The position numbers were made by a program, and so were the translations under genes. This document shows positions 2,604 to 12,070 of a DNA stretch of 12,070 bases, piece after piece. The notes beneath the pieces are model-generated. The model was not told where the DNA came from and did no database searches. It was given only the letters and a program-made list of their open reading frames with translations. The stretch is from NCBI GenBank assembly GCA_049599895.1, contig JBMYPC010000093.1:1-12070 (forward strand), written 5' to 3'. Source of the DNA: Bacteriovoracaceae bacterium (lineage in GTDB: Bacteria > Bdellovibrionota > Bacteriovoracia > Bacteriovoracales > Bacteriovoracaceae). Within the stretch, counting starts at the first letter, position 1; each line of letters starts with the position of its first letter.

Positions 2604-3011
2604 ATGAGTCTCACCAAGGCTGACATTATAGAAAGAGTCTATAAAGAGGCAGGGTTCTCTAAAAAAGAGGCTGCAGATCTTGTTGATCTTGTTTTTAAGG
2701 TAATCAAAGACACACTCGCACGGGGTGAGAAAGTGAAGATTTCTGGTTTTGGAAATTTTTCTATTCGCGACAAGGCCACAAGGGTAGGGAGAAATCCACA
2801 GACCGGACAGGCCATGGATATTTCTGCTCGACGTGTTCTTACTTTTAAACCAAGTCAAGTTTTAAAAGAAGATATTACATCTCGTTACTCACATCGACTT
2901 GATGATAAGGGTAATGAAGACATGTCACTTCCTTCAAAAGATGGAACTTCTCGAGCATTAAGTTCATTTATGAATAATGTCGAAGACAGTGGTTCTGATT
3001 TAGATTTTTAA
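2604..3011 (+). CDS. ihfA: Integration host factor subunit alpha (HU/IHF family) with a C-terminal extension (135 aa)
   Basis: MSLTKADI, GEKVKISGFGNF, GRNPQTG and ISARRVLTFKPSQ are IHF-alpha signatures. It has a strong RBS and is followed by a MerR-like gene, as in the widespread ihfA-merR pair. Confidence 0.92.
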   Translation: MSLTKADIIERVYKEAGFSKKEAADLVDLVFKVIKDTLARGEKVKISGFGNFSIRDKATRVGRNPQTGQAMDISARRVLTFKPSQVLKEDITSRYSHRLDDKGNEDMSLPSKDGTSRALSSFMNNVEDSGSDLDF

Positions 3012-3050: not shown

Positions 3051-3572
3051 ATGCTAGAGACTCTTAATATCCCTGAAAAAAGCTCCTTCAAAGAAGACGA
3101 GGTCTGCCGTCTGACAGGTGTAAAGCCATACGTCTTAAAGTTTTGGGAGTCACAATTTGATGAAATCAATCCTTTAACTTCTGCTACAGGAAAGAAAGTT
3201 TATGAGCATTCTGATATTCAAGCAGTTGCTCTCATTAAAAAGTTTCTTTTTGAGGAGAAGTTAAGTGTTGAAAAAGCAAAAGAAAGGCTTGAAGCTTCTT
3301 TTGATCAGTTAGGAGAGGATGAGTCTGATCTCGAGGAGCATGTTCTAGCTCCTGAAGAAGGTGAAGTCCTAGAACAAGTCGAAGTTCAAAGAGATTTTGA
3401 TTACGATAATCTCAACTCTCAATTTCAAAAGAGTCAAAAACGCTTACAAGAACTCGAACTAATGCAAAAAAATAATAGTAAGAGCTTACAAAAAATTATT
3501 CTTGCAAAGGCCAAGATTAAAAATCTAATCGTTCAGACATACGAGTTTAAGCAACGACTCAATACGATCTAG
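3051..3572 (+). CDS. MerR-family HTH protein of the ihfA-associated type, with an acidic linker and coiled-coil-like C-terminus (173 aa)
   Basis: IPEKSSFKEDEVCRLTGVKPYVLKFWESQF...GKKVYEHSDI...IKKFLFEEKLSVEKAKERL aligns by eye to the ihfA-linked MerR pattern. GAAGGT lies upstream of the ATG. Confidence 0.85.
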   Translation: MLETLNIPEKSSFKEDEVCRLTGVKPYVLKFWESQFDEINPLTSATGKKVYEHSDIQAVALIKKFLFEEKLSVEKAKERLEASFDQLGEDESDLEEHVLAPEEGEVLEQVEVQRDFDYDNLNSQFQKSQKRLQELELMQKNNSKSLQKIILAKAKIKNLIVQTYEFKQRLNTI

Positions 3573-4496
3573 CTCATTATCACTTAAATGGACTCTAAGA
3601 CTTGTTTTTTGTTTTTGAAGTTCATTTAAATTCTTCTTGAAGTATTTTTTTACATAACAAGACGTGTAAGGATGATCTTTTAAAAGATCATCCGTCTTTT
3701 CTAGAACAGACTCAAGAACTTCAAGGCTCTGTGGTTTGAAATTAATCCATGGTTGAATGTCTTGTTCGTGATTGGTTTCACTACTGCTTTGTGTTTCTTC
3801 AAGATCAAAAAGGTCATCAAGAAACTGAAAACTTAGTCCCAATGAATAGCCCAATCTCCAGGATTGTTTTATTGGCCGGAAGTCTTTGTTTGCAAGAAGT
3901 GCTGCTCCAGCAATGGAAAGCTGGATAAGTCTTGCTGTTTTTAGCTCATGGGTTTTAAGAACATACTCAAATGAAGATTTCATCATTTTTGAGAGATCAA
4001 GATATTGGCCTAGAATGAGACCCTTAGCACCCAAAGACCAAGTTGCTAAGCGATAAAGCCTTTGGAAGTTTGGATGGTCGATATAGGAAAGATAGCGCCA
4101 AGAAAGGACTTGATAGGCATCACCTGTAAGTAAGGCCTCCCATTCAGAGAACTGTTTATGATGAGAGGCTTTCGACCTTCTCAAGTCATCATCATCCATA
4201 CAAGGCATATCATCATGTAAAAGGGTGTAAACGTGATGAACTTCGAGAAAATAGCAAAAATTCTCGATGTTTTTAAGGGCTTCTGTTTCGTTATTAAAAA
4301 GTTCTTCTGGAGATAAACCTGTTTTATCGCAAAAAGAAAAGAATGCGAGATTAGGTCTAAAGAATTTTCCTGGGGGGAGTAGAGAATACTTCAAGCCTTC
4401 AGAAAATCTTGAGAGCTTTGGGTTGTTTATGAGATGTTTTGAAAGAGAGTTTTCAAAGCGGCTTATAAGAATATCAACGTTTTGTTCTATGTTCAT
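3525..4496 (-). CDS. ispA: Short-chain trans-polyprenyl diphosphate synthase (IspA/farnesyl diphosphate synthase-like), 323 aa
   Basis: GKxxRP, first Asp-rich motif HVYTLLHDDMPCMDDDDLRR (DDxxxxD type, Tyr at -5 as in short-chain enzymes), LLTGDA, GQYLDL, KTA, and second Asp-rich motif FQFLDDLFD. Confidence 0.85.
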   Translation of the reverse strand: MNIEQNVDILISRFENSLSKHLINNPKLSRFSEGLKYSLLPPGKFFRPNLAFFSFCDKTGLSPEELFNNETEALKNIENFCYFLEVHHVYTLLHDDMPCMDDDDLRRSKASHHKQFSEWEALLTGDAYQVLSWRYLSYIDHPNFQRLYRLATWSLGAKGLILGQYLDLSKMMKSSFEYVLKTHELKTARLIQLSIAGAALLANKDFRPIKQSWRLGYSLGLSFQFLDDLFDLEETQSSSETNHEQDIQPWINFKPQSLEVLESVLEKTDDLLKDHPYTSCYVKKYFKKNLNELQKQKTSLRVHLSDNELDRIESLLKLVCLND

Positions 4497-7849: not shown

Positions 7850-9235
7850 CTAGTCTGTTCGCATTTCAATGACTCGAGGTTCAAGGAGTTCCATCGGAGT
7901 TTTCTTTTTCTCTTTATCTTTGTCGTCTTCTCCATTGCTACCGTCTTTGTCACTATCATTTTCAGAACCTGAGTCTTTATCTCCGTCTTTGTCATCTCCC
8001 TTCTTTTTCTTCTTTGGAGGCTCGGGCTTGATAGGCAGATCAACAAAGGCCACAATTTTATAATAGCCTCTTTCGTATTCACCAACTGATTCAACTTTAA
8101 AAAGCTTTCCGGCTGTTCCAACTCTAAGGCCCGCGAGTTCTAGCTCTTTCATTCGGTCTTCAAAGTCTTTCAGTGGAACAGCTCCCATCTCCTCGACGAG
8201 GACCTTTTTAAAATCTTCTTGGGTCTCAAATTCTCGAGGTTCGATTTGCTTTTCTTTGTCTCCGTCTCGAATTTTAAAAAAGTCTTCGAGTTGTTCTTTA
8301 CTAAGTGAGGGAAAAAGTTGTTTCAGTTGTTTTTTAGTCAGGTCGTTTAAAGGAATGATGCTGACTTCGTGGACTGTCAGTCTGTCTTTAATCAGTTCGA
8401 TCATAGCATCTGGCCAACCTAAAAGAAGGTGCATTTCATCGACACTTGTCATTGGGGCATGTTTTGGCTCGATATTTTGAGAAAGATATTGGGCCTCAAT
8501 TTCAGCTCTTTCTGAGTCATTAAAATCTTCAGGTCTATTGACATAAAATTTAATCTCTTTTACCAGAAGCTCTGGACGAAGATTCCCATAAAGATTATCA
8601 AACTCTTCGTCTTCTTCACGTTTTTCATCCATGGATTGTTTTAAAGCTTCTATTAGCTCTTCTTCCACGAGTTGATGAGGAAGCTTCTTTTCTCCTCCCT
8701 CTCCCTCTTCTCCTTGAGAACGAGACTCACTGTCTTCGTCTTCATCTTGACCCTGACTAGGACTTTTCTTTGGAATCCTCATATTGTTGGGATTGAGAAA
8801 GCCTGAGACTGGGGTAATCGTGACAAAAAGTTTTCCTTTGAAAATAACACTTTTTTCAAACTCTTGAAGAAGGCTTTTTTGATTGGCAGAGGCCTTTTCG
8901 GGAAGAGGAATAGGGTAAGCAAAAGGTTGAGTAATGATTCCTTCGAGCATTGAGGGCTTGAGGACACTTTTCATATCCTTATTCTTTTCTAAGAGATTAA
9001 AAGCATCTTTGTAGAGTCTAAGCTTGGCCATCGCGAAATTAAGACCACTTTCAGCATTAAGTTTTGCCTGAAGTTTGTCTTGAAGGTTATAGACTTTAAA
9101 CTTATTGAGCTCTGTTTCGAACATAAGATCACTCATAAGAAAAGACATTATGGCAATTGAGGATATCACCATGAGAAGAGCGATGCCTTTTTGAGGTGCT
9201 AATAAAAGTTTTTTAAGGAAGTCTTTATTCTTCAT
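7850..9235 (-). CDS. gspK: Type II secretion minor pseudopilin GspK (461 aa)
   Basis: Prepilin site QKG|IALLMVI lacking Glu5 (typical of GspK), QAKLNAESGL, FLNPN, KHAPMTSVDEMHLLLGW, IPLN. AAGGAG RBS; overlaps the gspJ stop. Confidence 0.88.
   Translation of the reverse strand: MKNKDFLKKLLLAPQKGIALLMVISSIAIMSFLMSDLMFETELNKFKVYNLQDKLQAKLNAESGLNFAMAKLRLYKDAFNLLEKNKDMKSVLKPSMLEGIITQPFAYPIPLPEKASANQKSLLQEFEKSVIFKGKLFVTITPVSGFLNPNNMRIPKKSPSQGQDEDEDSESRSQGEEGEGGEKKLPHQLVEEELIEALKQSMDEKREEDEEFDNLYGNLRPELLVKEIKFYVNRPEDFNDSERAEIEAQYLSQNIEPKHAPMTSVDEMHLLLGWPDAMIELIKDRLTVHEVSIIPLNDLTKKQLKQLFPSLSKEQLEDFFKIRDGDKEKQIEPREFETQEDFKKVLVEEMGAVPLKDFEDRMKELELAGLRVGTAGKLFKVESVGEYERGYYKIVAFVDLPIKPEPPKKKKKGDDKDGDKDSGSENDSDKDGSNGEDDKDKEKKKTPMELLEPRVIEMRTD
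7901..8029 (-). repeat. Low-complexity K/D/G/S tract in gspK with four imperfect DKD repeats
   Basis: Encodes KPEPPKKKKKGDDKDGDKDSGSENDSDKDGSNGEDDKDKEKKK; GTCTTT[GA]TC-like units recur on the + strand. Confidence 0.7.
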
Positions 9236-10088
9236 CAGACTCCTTTGAATTATTATTATTTGATCCTGTCTTTGTGCTCTTTATCGCATCGATATCTTTT
9301 TGTGGATCAAAATACGGCCAATTGACTCGAAAACTTCTCTGAAATTCGATCTCATTGCCATCTTGGGATATCCAGACAAGATTGACCCTGAGTAGACGAA
9401 GAGAGTTTTTCTTTTCGTTGAGTTCTCTTGGTGAACTGACAAACTTTTTTAGTTCAGTAGACCAAAATTCAAACTCAAGAGACTTAATACTTTTTAATAG
9501 AACTTGGGCCCGAACTTTATCCCAACTGTGCTCTTTGGTGTAAATATTTTCAGCGACAACTTGTCTGACGAGCTCGTATTCTCCACGGGGAATCTCATCA
9601 TCGTCAGATTCATCTTCTTTTTCTTCGGTGTCTCTTAAAGAGTAACGAATCCAAGCATAATTTGATTGTTTCGTATCCTGAATTTTTCGTTTGTTGGCAG
9701 AACTGAGAAACACAATGGAGTCCTTTGATAAAGAATCCATACTTGGGACAAGATGTCCTCTTCCGGTCATCACTGGAAACTTTTCACTAGGAGTAAAGCT
9801 TGTATTTTGTTCGAACTCATCGAGGGAGTTATTTTCTTGTTCATATAAAGAAGAGTCAATTCGCTTCAGGCCTGAATGGAAGAGCGGAGAGTAGATACTA
9901 TCGATATCAAGTTCAAGGCGATAAAAAGCAAACTCTAATGAGAGGCGATCACGGTCTTCAGAGACAACAATTTCTCTTGTCTCTGTGCTATCAGAAATCA
10001 TTGTATAAACCATTGTCATCATAAGCCCGAGAAGAGTCAGGGCAATGAGGATTTCAAGTAATGTAAAGCCTTTATTATTTTGAACCAG
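9225..10088 (-). CDS. gspJ: Type II secretion minor pseudopilin GspJ (287 aa, probable CTG start)
   Basis: The frame extends upstream of ATG 10022 as (M)VQNNKG|FTLLEILIALTLLGLMMTMVY and is bounded by an in-frame TAG at 10103-10101. CTG at 10088-10086 lies 8 nt after AGGAGG. Position is between gspI and gspK. Confidence 0.82.
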   Translation of the reverse strand: MVQNNKGFTLLEILIALTLLGLMMTMVYTMISDSTETREIVVSEDRDRLSLEFAFYRLELDIDSIYSPLFHSGLKRIDSSLYEQENNSLDEFEQNTSFTPSEKFPVMTGRGHLVPSMDSLSKDSIVFLSSANKRKIQDTKQSNYAWIRYSLRDTEEKEDESDDDEIPRGEYELVRQVVAENIYTKEHSWDKVRAQVLLKSIKSLEFEFWSTELKKFVSSPRELNEKKNSLRLLRVNLVWISQDGNEIEFQRSFRVNWPYFDPQKDIDAIKSTKTGSNNNNSKESDEE

Positions 10089-10089
10089 T

Positions 10090-10596
10090 TTAAAACCCTC
10101 CTATTTCAACTTGAGCTTCAACATTATAAAGCCAATGAGTGACATTATATTTTTCACCAGAGAGTTTTGATTCAATTTCCACATCAACCTGCCAAATAAG
10201 CTTTTCCATATTTTTGGTGACGGTTTCAGAGATTTTCTTTTCTATTGCAGAGGCAGATTTGCCTTCAGGGTCGTCCGCCTGAGTTTTTAATTTGCTAAAG
10301 TCAGGCAAGGTAAACTTTTTCCATGTGAGAGTGTAAAGATAGTCTTCCTCATCATCAAAAGATTTTTGGGTAGAGGTTGCTGTCAACGATTCATTAAATG
10401 TTGGAGGATTGACAATGAGTTCATTGACCACTTTTTGGGCAAGGGATCTCAGTTTAAGGTTTTCTGGGAAAGTTCCAGAGATTCCAACTTGAGTTCCTTG
10501 GACTTGCACAAAAACTGTGGCAAAAGTTGCAAACATTGCTAGAGCAATAACAACCTCAAGAAGACTAAAGCCCTGTTGTTTCTTTAAAAAGCTCAT
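10090..10596 (-). CDS. gspI: Type II secretion minor pseudopilin GspI (168 aa)
   Basis: MSFLKKQQG|FSLLEVVIALAMFA prepilin motif. ATG 10596-10594 overlaps the gspH TGA (ATGA coupling), so it is preferred over TTG 10611. Confidence 0.8.
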   Translation of the reverse strand: MSFLKKQQGFSLLEVVIALAMFATFATVFVQVQGTQVGISGTFPENLKLRSLAQKVVNELIVNPPTFNESLTATSTQKSFDDEEDYLYTLTWKKFTLPDFSKLKTQADDPEGKSASAIEKKISETVTKNMEKLIWQVDVEIESKLSGEKYNVTHWLYNVEAQVEIGGF

Positions 10597-11276
10597 TTTA
10601 CTTTTTTCCAATCATTAAAAAGCTCTTGAGCTTTTGAAATTCCTTGATCATAGACATCTTCAATGTCATCAAGTGGAGGATCAAAAGGGTAGCGATTGAT
10701 TTCAAAATCATAAGTGAAGGCAGGAATCGTAAGAGAAACGACTTCATCGTAATTGGCGATAAAGAGAATCGATTCATCCCTTTCACCACTTGGATAAATA
10801 TAAACAGAAGCTTCAAAGTCTGTTAAGAGATCTTCATGGAGAAGGCTTCCAACCCCTATAATCACAGAGTCTTGATTAAATTCTTTTGCCTTTTCTTTAA
10901 ATTCTGGAAGGCGGTTAAATTTTTTATTTTCTTCTTTTTGAGTTTTTTCGAATTCTTCTTGTTCTCTTTCAGTAAGATCATCACGATTTTTTTGATTGAG
11001 TGAAGAAAGAGGAATAACGTAAGAATCATCTGGCCCGTATTCGAGGGTGAATTTTTGAGGTTCATCATCCAAATAGAAATGGAGTCTGACGATGGCATTT
11101 CTCATTGCTGCTTCGTCAACTCCAAAGCGAACAGCTCGTTCAATGAGATCAGTGCTATCAAGGGCGCGGTCTCGATCAGGGCCAGCAAAAGAAAGGGCCA
11201 TACCTAGGACAAGAGAAACAAGAACTAGGGCAACGAGAATTTCAAGGAGGCTAAAACCTTTTTGCTGCTTTAGGAT
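10593..11276 (-). CDS. gspH: Type II secretion minor pseudopilin GspH (227 aa, probable ATC start)
   Basis: The frame extends upstream of ATG 11201 as (M)LKQQKG|FSLLEILVALVLVSLVLGMAL. ATC at 11276-11274 lies 5 nt after AAGGAGG. VYIYPSG matches the GspH/FimT-type F-x-P-x-G motif. Position is immediately after gspG. Confidence 0.8.
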   Translation of the reverse strand: MLKQQKGFSLLEILVALVLVSLVLGMALSFAGPDRDRALDSTDLIERAVRFGVDEAAMRNAIVRLHFYLDDEPQKFTLEYGPDDSYVIPLSSLNQKNRDDLTEREQEEFEKTQKEENKKFNRLPEFKEKAKEFNQDSVIIGVGSLLHEDLLTDFEASVYIYPSGERDESILFIANYDEVVSLTIPAFTYDFEINRYPFDPPLDDIEDVYDQGISKAQELFNDWKKVK

Positions 11277-11293
11277 CTTGGCCTCCTTGGAAA
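11240..11293 (-). promoter_or_regulatory. Predicted mRNA hairpin that sequesters the gspH Shine-Dalgarno and start codon
   Basis: Perfect 9-bp inverted repeat: + strand CAAGGAGGC at 11243-11251 and GCCTCCTTG at 11281-11289; extendable on both sides. Confidence 0.6.
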
Positions 11294-11297
11294 GGTT

Positions 11298-11768
11298 TTA
11301 TTTATTGGATTCGTATAATAAAATGTCGGCATCTTGGCCTTCGCCACCTTCTTCATTATCAGGTCCAAGAGATTTGATATTAAATCTTCGTCCATCACTT
11401 TCATAAACATAGTCATTGTCCCAAGGATCGAGTGGAACACCTAGCTCGCCATCAAGAAAACCATTTGGTGGGTACTTCTTACATTCTTTACCTGATGGCT
11501 TACTGATAAGAGCTTCAAGGCCTTGGTCTTGAGTTGGGTAGAAGTTACACTTTCTTTTGAACTCCTTAAGTTGGGTTGCCAAATTTCCCATTTGGATTTT
11601 TGCTGCCTTAACATTCCCTTCATGAAGAGAGTCTAAAACTCGACCACCAACAAATGCGACGATCCCACCTAAGAGGGTCAGTGCGACAAGAATTTCAAGA
11701 AGTGAGAAACCAGCTTCGTAGTGTCGGTTCTGCTTTTTGTTAGTTTGAGTTTTTGTTTCGAGATTCAT
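11298..11768 (-). CDS. gspG: Type II secretion major pseudopilin GspG (156 aa)
   Basis: EAG|FSLLEILV, YPTQDQGLEALISKP, VPLDPWDNDYVY, and C-terminal SLGPDNEEGGEGQDADI (Ca2+-binding loop pattern). AAAGGT RBS. Confidence 0.96.
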   Translation of the reverse strand: MNLETKTQTNKKQNRHYEAGFSLLEILVALTLLGGIVAFVGGRVLDSLHEGNVKAAKIQMGNLATQLKEFKRKCNFYPTQDQGLEALISKPSGKECKKYPPNGFLDGELGVPLDPWDNDYVYESDGRRFNIKSLGPDNEEGGEGQDADILLYESNK

Positions 11769-11794
11769 AAATCGTTACCTTTTACTTAACAGTA

Positions 11795-12070
11795 TTAACT
11801 AATTTTATTCAGTTCCATCATAGGCATGACGACCGAAAAAACAATAAGCGCCACAGCGACACCCATAAAAACAATCATAACTGGTTCTAGGAGTGAAGTG
11901 AGGCCAGAAAGTTTATTATCTACCTGTTCTTGATAATTTTCCGCGACAATTTCGAGCATGGGTTCAAGCTCACCACTAGATTCGCCGAGTTTGATCATAT
12001 GGGTCATCATTGAGGGGAATAATCCGCTTTGATTGAGAGGTCCTACAAGAGAGGCACCAGCGGCGACTTC
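11795..12070 (-). CDS. gspF: Type II secretion inner-membrane platform protein GspF, C-terminal part (5'-truncated by the window edge)
   Basis: Frame is open to the window end: EVAAGASLVGPLNQSGLFPSMMTHMIKLGESSGELEPML...LTSLLEPVMIVFMGVAVALIVFSVVMPM, a GspF/PilC signature. Confidence 0.95.
   Translation of the reverse strand, partial: EVAAGASLVGPLNQSGLFPSMMTHMIKLGESSGELEPMLEIVAENYQEQVDNKLSGLTSLLEPVMIVFMGVAVALIVFSVVMPMMELNKIS

Follow-up and report, generated by a model that had tools for sequence, protein, structure and literature searches.

A candidate templated insertion over the gspH start of a Bacteriovoracaceae genome, and recurrent near-cognate gspH start candidates in the family

In the 12,070-nt stretch of DNA analysed here (the window), the hairpin that covers the start of gspH may have arisen in one step: with a probability of about one half, a 17-nt insertion copied from neighbouring DNA by template switching made the stem, moved gspH out of the frame of its closest relatives and set a strong Shine–Dalgarno sequence (SD) 5 nt ahead of an isoleucine codon, ATC, which would then serve as a weak gspH start. 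Ribosomes on a remnant open reading frame (ORF), and not those on gspG, would melt the stem and re-initiate at the ATC, so that gspH would be coupled to the remnant ORF rather than to gspG termination, with low output; such weak initiation would be tolerated because the leader is cleaved at the G/F motif, as established for prepilin processing. What goes beyond the hairpin itself is the apparent templated rewiring, together with the recurrence of putative near-cognate gspH starts in the family, the translation steps being deduced from sequence throughout.

The minus strand of the window carries the end of gspF, then gspG, genes in the gspH, gspI, gspJ and gspK positions, and three further genes read positionally as gspL, gspM and gspN; gspD, gspE and the prepilin peptidase gene are unbroken elsewhere in the same genome (G000), which is the sole member of its genus among the genomes searched. 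The features discussed below are as follows.

11298–11768, minus strand: gspG, major pseudopilin (TIGR01710, 102.2 bits against a cut-off of 88.85; PF08334; prepilin motif)
10593–11276, minus strand: minor pseudopilin in the gspH position, open frame of 227 codons (PF07963; TIGR01708 below its cut-off)
11274–11276, minus strand: likely gspH start ATC, giving a 6-residue leader ahead of the G/F cleavage motif
11282–11288, minus strand: SD AAGGAGG, 5 nt ahead of the ATC, duplex of −11.4 kcal/mol with the assumed anti-SD
11277–11293, minus strand: likely 17-nt frame-shifting insertion, the 5′ (SD) arm of the hairpin, placed from relatives' protein leaders only
11275–11340, minus strand: 10-nt direct repeat, 11340–11331 and 11284–11275, the third tile of the junction (exact match)
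11270–11332, minus strand: remnant ORF of 20 codons, read from the gspG tail in frame +1; the GspH leaders of the closest relatives are its homologues
11243–11289, minus strand: hairpin A, predicted, with 9 bp (11289–11281 with 11251–11243) and an inner stem (11279–11272 with 11259–11253)
11252–11300, minus strand: helix B, predicted, 10 perfect bp (11300–11291 with 11261–11252), best fold −11.4
10090–10596, minus strand: pseudopilin in the gspI position, its ATG start overlapping the gspH stop
9225–10088, minus strand: pseudopilin in the gspJ position, named by position
10086–10102, minus strand: gspJ start region, SD AGGAGG (10102–10097) within the last gspI codons and likely CTG start (10088–10086)

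The gspG stop, TAA at 11300–11298, shares its frame with gspH. The gspH product has the prepilin G/F motif and E5 and is placed between gspG and gspI-J-K, as expected of GspH; TIGR01708 is its top family, yet at 33.1 bits against a cut-off of 80, and the name is given by position. In the public protein set this product (P0001) is shortened to 202 aa, with the pilin N-terminus missing, and that of gspJ is represented by a cut version of 265 aa. By GspG, the top five named relatives belong to Bacteriovoracaceae, Halobacteriovoraceae and Oligoflexia (51–63%), and on this basis the genome is regarded as that of a Bacteriovoracaceae-like predator. The region was present in one seawater run (X1) and in no RNA run among those listed; the X1 Logan contig is identical to the window across 9800–12070 without gaps, and X1 may be the source sample; metagenome scans returned no GspH relative, and five GspG loci only, all distant. 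The anti-SD sequence used for the SD energies was assumed, the search of the genome having given no 16S rRNA, and all folding energies are predictions for 37 °C.

Starting from the gspG stop, 26 nt of the junction are spanned by three tiles, each of which matches a neighbouring sequence exactly: 11300–11291 is the reverse complement of 11261–11252, 11289–11281 is that of 11251–11243, and 11284–11275 repeats 11340–11331. Two inverted matches and one direct match, each of at least 9 nt and within 70 nt, cover 25 of the 26 nt, and the tiles join at the short shared words TTT, AGGC and AT. Equal cover by three pieces, two of them inverted, was found in one of 2302 stop-codon windows of this genome (the present one) and in none of 252,606 random windows, under thresholds chosen after the case had been seen. 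New bases that copy nearby sequence, with short shared words at the joints, are the pattern of a template switch, here with one extra base in the inverted copy relative to its template; replication template switching is reported to yield perfect stems in one step (PMC8794818, as excerpted).

The extent of the insertion is suggested by the relatives. The closest GspH clusters are 61% (P0002) and 57% (P0003 and P0004) identical to this product, and the leaders of P0002, P0003/P0043 and P0004/P0045 match the +1 frame of the present gspG tail (P0047), unbroken into G/F; the difference in length and frame is read from these protein leaders, and their match is partly forced by the overlapping GspG sequence. 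At the junction this genome is longer by 23 nt than P0002, by 26 nt than P0003/P0043 and by 17 nt than P0004/P0045, all 2 mod 3. Among the 268 frame-restoring omissions tried, only that of 11293–11277 (with two equivalent placements) yields a five-residue match, NKTIL, to the leader of one relative, and the same omission weakens the fold from −27.3 to −12.9. Since 11293–11277 is the SD arm, this arm was likely copied from the S-L-L-E codons of gspH, the reverse of the logic of the original prediction; such copying accounts for the complementarity better than would a codon choice under selection for concealing the SD. Against the insertion, it must be said that it is read from protein leaders of relatives no closer than 57–61%, with a breakpoint set by five residues of one of them; that an ATC start behind a block of 13 kcal/mol could yield almost no protein; and that the case comes from one genome and one sample.

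The remnant ORF is opened by the former upstream ATG at 11332, or has 28 codons if the second ATG, at 11356, is taken as its start; it runs through the SD arm and ends 7 nt inside the frame that begins at the ATC. Its ATG has an SD strength of −6.9, the same as the median for the 48 relatives that have only deep-overlap ATG starts, and a ribosome modelled at remnant codons 14–16 lowers the opening cost from 12.9 to 0–0.4, against 4.6 for one at the remnant stop. The ORF is not in itself a sign of selection, since synonymous shuffling of the gspG tail preserves it in 97.5% of cases, and with 8 ORFs of this type against an expected 8.9 the family shows no enrichment; an apparent enrichment of "bridge ORFs" (14 of 47 loci against 14 of 163 gene pairs genome-wide) was gone against the synonymous-shuffle null. 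In the same genome infC (L192, minus strand of contig C41, near 1480) starts with GGGAGG, 6 nt and then ATA, the usual infC start codon being ATT. The codons AUC, CUG, AUA and AUU initiate at 1–2% of the AUG level in E. coli (10.1101/063800, as excerpted), a yield in keeping with the low output proposed. The junction would then be a local version of a family habit, in which gspH begins either at a deep-overlap ATG with a weak SD or at an SD with a near-cognate codon at the gspG stop.

The hairpin itself is well supported as a predicted structure. The perfect 9-bp helix of hairpin A holds the SD (11288–11282), as had been described, and the inner stem that encloses the ATC is also present in the predicted fold, for which the minimum free energy (MFE) and centroid structures agree (−20.3 kcal/mol, z −3.25, a stability reached by 2 of 200 dinucleotide shuffles); the outward UUU/AAA extension that had been added to it is absent from both. 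The assignment of the start is also upheld as likely, as the stretch from the gspG stop to the G/F motif holds no in-frame ATG, GTG or TTG. Compared with 1000 synonymous shuffles at the genome's codon usage, the fold is rarer than chance, albeit modestly: the MFE is matched by 7.5% of them, the SD-opening cost of 13.1 by 2.6% and the cost of opening −18 to +13 by 1.4%, the corresponding values with uniform codons being 11.9%, 1.1% and 1.4%. It had been argued that the anti-SD is not forced by the protein, gspG encoding its own SLLE with other codons; when these codons are put into gspH, the SD-opening cost is still 8.6 against 11.0, another CU-rich partner being available, and a cost of at least 4 kcal/mol is kept in 93% of synonymous shuffles. 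Among the 329 genes of this genome with a strong SD, the SD is as occluded in 2 and the start region in 9, none of 201 internal AGGAGG words is as occluded as the gspH SD, and the gspH start of this genome is the most occluded of 137 in the family. A second helix, B, contains the gspG stop, crosses hairpin A and is mutually exclusive with it, and is predicted to form before hairpin A in the course of transcription. No intrinsic terminator was found on the minus strand near 11240–11300. A perfect and statistically unusual stem over an SD can arise by one mutation and does not by itself imply a selected switch.

Among the rival explanations is the original prediction, in which the hairpin is selected and is opened by ribosomes terminating on gspG, and in the light of the modelling it is improbable. 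The stop does lie 9 nt from the SD, as claimed, but not so that the stem falls inside the footprint of the terminating ribosome: for a ribosome whose A site is on the gspG stop, hairpin A has its core stem from +15 onward, counted from the P site, and the SD occupies +16 to +22, whereas published work puts the ribosomal helicase centre some 11 nt from the P site, and duplexes at +13 to +16 were ineffective in one assay (PMC12170187, as excerpted). When the RNA is held open in the model, the residual SD-opening cost is 11.9 kcal/mol at +13, 8.9 at +15, 7.9 at +16, 3.5 at +18 and 1.1 at +19, so that the gspG stop appears to lie some 4–6 nt too far upstream, although the stem would be weakened. 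The distance between this stop and the ATC is +21 nt, outside the range of about −4 to +10 nt for termination-reinitiation (the remnant ORF is at −7); a separation of about 20 nt is reported nearly to abolish the process, and in E. coli 38 nt cut it by 80–100%, shorter gaps being variable (PMC10666635, as excerpted). The gene thus shares with the hairpin-coupled class an SD and start hidden in a stable predicted stem, while the stem arm is beyond the modelled reach of the gspG ribosome, and membership of that class with gspG as the opener fits poorly. In favour of the gspG ribosome, the stem beats 97–99% of synonymous shuffles for the opening of SD and start, covering to +16 removes about 4–5 kcal/mol, a post-termination subunit could slide in, and the gspH starts of the family are more structured than those of gspG (+2.6) and gspI (+1.4), kin not being independent. 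The stem is nevertheless unconserved, an outcome that the original prediction had itself named as refuting: it occurs in 1 of 137 gspH starts, in a set that includes no close relative's DNA, and leaves no room for covariation. In L012, a neighbour on the same supported branch that likewise lacks a canonical start, the start is open (2.4).

An insertion of this kind could instead be a young and damaging mutation that leaves gspH nearly silent in the population, with the SD–ATC spacing an accident, an unlikely alternative that deserves to be taken seriously. The three tiles match their templates almost perfectly, suggesting youth, the start is the most occluded of 137, and the reverse complement of Leu-Leu codons makes an SD automatically; the spacing and frame of the SD are ideal, however, gspH is open and of full length, and gspJ in the same operon has separately lost its ATG and gained a strong SD with CTG. 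The literature bears on both sides, the essentiality of GspH being questioned in the same excerpted source that gives XcpH as indispensable in Pseudomonas aeruginosa (10.1101/2020.12.11.420943). Alternatively, the two helices could form a selected two-state switch, in which helix B forms first and leaves the SD fairly open, and a ribosome at the stop then displaces B, so that A can close and the coupling is inverse. Helix B spans exactly +4 to +13 of the terminating ribosome, two crossing perfect helices of at least 9 bp occur in 27 of 20,000 synonymous shuffles and at none of 1933 genome starts, and B is the predicted fold for 3′ ends 11256–11248, with an opening cost of about 4; but A is ahead by 9 kcal/mol after 10 more bases, the arrangement is confined to this genome, and template switching accounts for both helices and the direct repeat where pairing accounts for two only, all of which makes the switch very improbable. 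Still less can be given to recoding, by a −1 frameshift from the remnant ORF or by read-through of the gspG stop, for which the stem 8 nt further on would be the stimulus. After a −1 shift the mature GspH would be normal once the leader is cleaved, and gspH is in frame with gspG, but the sequence from one stop to the other contains no X XXY YYZ site, only 4 of the 15 family loci without a canonical start are in the gspG frame against 10 in frame 2, and, from the topology of pilins, the second cleavage site of a GspG–GspH fusion would lie across the membrane from where it is needed. An assembly or library artefact has an equally slim chance. Amplified libraries can yield patchworks of short inverted copies, and a single sample was available; a second assembly, however, gave one identical contig of 6442 nt at depth 9.5, and repeats of 9–10 nt are far below assembly word length.

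The templated insertion, with the remnant ORF as opener, is therefore taken forward, and its setting is provided by the gspH starts of the family. GspH was matched in 143 of 151 family genomes and 140 loci were taken, three matches at contig edges being left out; 139 of them have the motif and 137 a closed frame. An in-frame ATG, GTG or TTG is lacking in 15 of 137 gspH, compared with 0 of 135 gspG, 0 of 127 gspI and 1 of 126 gspJ (that of this genome), and two further gspH have a canonical start only beyond 30 codons. The 15 fall in seven genera: g12 (5 of 5, with CTG overlapping the stop by 4), g61 (4 of 5, ATA and GTA), g27 (2 of 3), and single cases in g1, g30, g48 and g49. On a FastTree tree of 123 rows, which leaves out 16 loci lacking gspG or gspI, the 17-row label needs nine changes, seven of them forced by well-supported branches, changes being counted without regard to direction. 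An SD of at least 4 nt precedes the candidate codon in all 15, compared with 46 of 120 others (kin not independent), GTA having joined the candidate codons after L063 and L085 were seen; under the strict definition, a single-mismatch near-cognate codon with an SD of at least 4 nt at the gspG stop, 11 of the 17 loci qualify, as do 3 of 66 and 2 of 52 others. The gspH without a canonical start are of full length (214–221 aa), and by their pN/pS of 0.05–0.36 in seven within-genus pairs, close to or slightly above gspG and gspI, the 15 are under purifying selection. The gspH of the window has the features of this group, with no canonical codon, an SD within 3–9 nt and an intact conserved frame, which makes its ATC a candidate site of initiation.

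The position of these candidates bears on coupling. Fourteen of the 15 lie at −14 to +3 nt from the gspG stop, and 13 of the 14 loci besides this genome at −4 to +3, so that translational coupling, as originally proposed, is plausible across the family, but the present locus, at +21, is the one positional exception. The expectation that gspH is held low relative to gspG was probably right: an SD of at least 4 nt is found at 99% of gspG starts against 36% of canonical gspH starts in the family. The 14 relatives appear to use other rare gspH starts, which would probably keep the minor subunit scarce. In the model, the switch first proposed for the window fits the g12 loci better than the window itself. 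At the five g12 loci (L032, L042, L044, L048 and L057) CTG overlaps the gspG stop by 4 in 5 of 5, and a 5–8-bp stem lies over stop and start; opening it costs 10–13 kcal/mol and nothing under a terminating ribosome, and its core pairs are invariant, so that there is no covariation. A conserved SD-hiding structure was not found among the 15 loci, of which 3 exceed 95% of 100 shuffles (group difference p 0.08, kin not independent), and many family loci fold a small stem that is forced by the codons of G-F-x-x-x-E-I.

The commonest family state is gspH in frame 1, the +1 frame (81 of 134). In 52 of 135 loci the canonical gspH start lies only deep inside gspG (14–59 nt), at exactly −29 in 19 of them, and such starts come from the conserved Asp-Ala codons of the gspG tail when these are read in the +1 frame; similar deep-overlap layouts occur in other families and in the Gammaproteobacteria loci L147–L151. 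In other families of the phylum, 50 loci (47 scorable) included none without a canonical start and one with it far upstream only. At the gspG–gspH junction of L012, two short direct repeats of sequence close by account for 14 of 26 nt in the SD region, and ATA/ATC overlaps the stop; the SD–ATC register of L012 was considered as a conserved start and set aside, being equally explained by a conserved Ile-Leu-Lys leader. In g61, L063 and L085 have GTA right after the gspG stop at ideal SD spacing, and since the leader frame of L063 holds no single-mismatch near-cognate codon, a GTA start, or read-through, would be needed there. The g48 loci L004, L005 and L011 have a 123-nt gap between gspG and gspH with a shared CTGTT...AACAG stem and a variable loop; the first codon of this stem, CTG, is in frame 14 codons before G/F, and in two of the three no canonical codon is nearer than a TTG 31 codons upstream.

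Relaxed start choice was not a genome-wide property: among 407 ortholog pairs (345 with resolved N-termini, over 800 kb of G098), only about one or two genes per genome showed clear homology ahead of the first canonical codon, as judged by eye among 14 flags, and near-cognate starts look rare genome-wide. L159 of G098 (plus strand, near 17225), which we take from its motif to be of the metallo-beta-lactamase fold and RNase J-like, aligns with its homologue over 151 residues ahead of the first canonical start, and has a CTG after AGGA near the left end of its frame. A minus-strand frame of contig C66 of G000, near strand position 11848, encodes a solute-binding-like protein that aligns to its G098 homologue from residue 117 only and may be frameshifted or cut. 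In the window, gspJ has no canonical start codon in frame; the five closest GspJ homologues with a whole N-terminus have an ATG at the place where this genome has AGGAGG and CTG, which suggests that gspJ likely lost its ATG and gained the strong SD with CTG. An 11-bp predicted stem lies over the gspJ SD (region −18.3), with an ordinary opening cost (62 of 329 genes as high). The frames at 3–1889, 2604–3011, 3051–3572 and 3525–4496 presumably encode the end of the glutamate synthase large subunit and IHF-like, MerR-like and polyprenyl-synthase-like proteins, and the 3′ ends of the last two overlap by 48 nt.

In Vibrio cholerae, how active the pilus is depends on the ratio of minor to major pilins (PMC13249403, as excerpted), while the manner in which operons set this ratio has been little tested, and a family that switches among deep-overlap ATG, canonical and near-cognate gspH starts offers a natural series for reporters; in addition, gene callers cut such proteins and lose the pilin motif (P0001, P0048). 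In separate lineages the candidate gspH starts are ATC, CTG, ATA, ATT, ACG and GTA, mostly at the upstream stop, and a search of open-licence papers (PMC11981180 and PMC13347799 among them, as excerpted) found no report of a non-canonical gspH start. A wider reading, which we advance tentatively and hold at somewhat under even odds, is that a single template-switch insertion made a natural bicistronic design, with a remnant leader ORF, a new SD, a self-hiding stem and an ATC, and that gspH of the Bacteriovoracaceae is a hotspot at which five or six non-canonical codons, GTA included, were repeatedly adopted, keeping the ratio of minor to major pseudopilin low.

Several known systems resemble parts of this arrangement, as far as the excerpted sources describe them. 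Template-switch mutations that make RNA stems (PMC8794818) share the perfect reverse-complement copy of nearby sequence and the one-step stem; they were shown on reconstructed histories of RNA genes, whereas here a patch of several pieces at a gene junction is deduced from protein leaders. The bicistronic design (PMC5995908) likewise has a leader ORF of about 17–20 codons, with the SD of the next gene at its 3′ end and a stop that overlaps the start, but it is engineered, with a strong SD1 and an ATG as second start, whereas the present candidate is natural, inside gspG, with a weak SD1 and an ATC. In translational coupling, whether by termination-reinitiation or by de novo initiation dependent on upstream translation (PMC10666635), too, a hidden start is freed by the upstream ribosome, and the −1/−4 overlaps of most relatives without a canonical start agree with it; here, in contrast, the gspG stop is 21 nt off, the pairing partner lies downstream in gspH, and the opener would be the remnant ORF (−7). 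The ATT start of ebpA in Enterococcus faecalis (PMC4447247) is also a rare start on a low-abundance pilus subunit that was missed by annotation and lowers its level, although it concerns a sortase pilus and a single codon tested in vivo, and not a type II secretion pseudopilin. In Streptomyces, the GTC start of sigR and the infC-type starts under IF3 control (PMC5472188) are non-canonical starts that set stoichiometry, with IF3 dependence and function tested there, and they give a GTN precedent for GTA; the gspH starts, in comparison with both of these systems, are candidates predicted from sequence.
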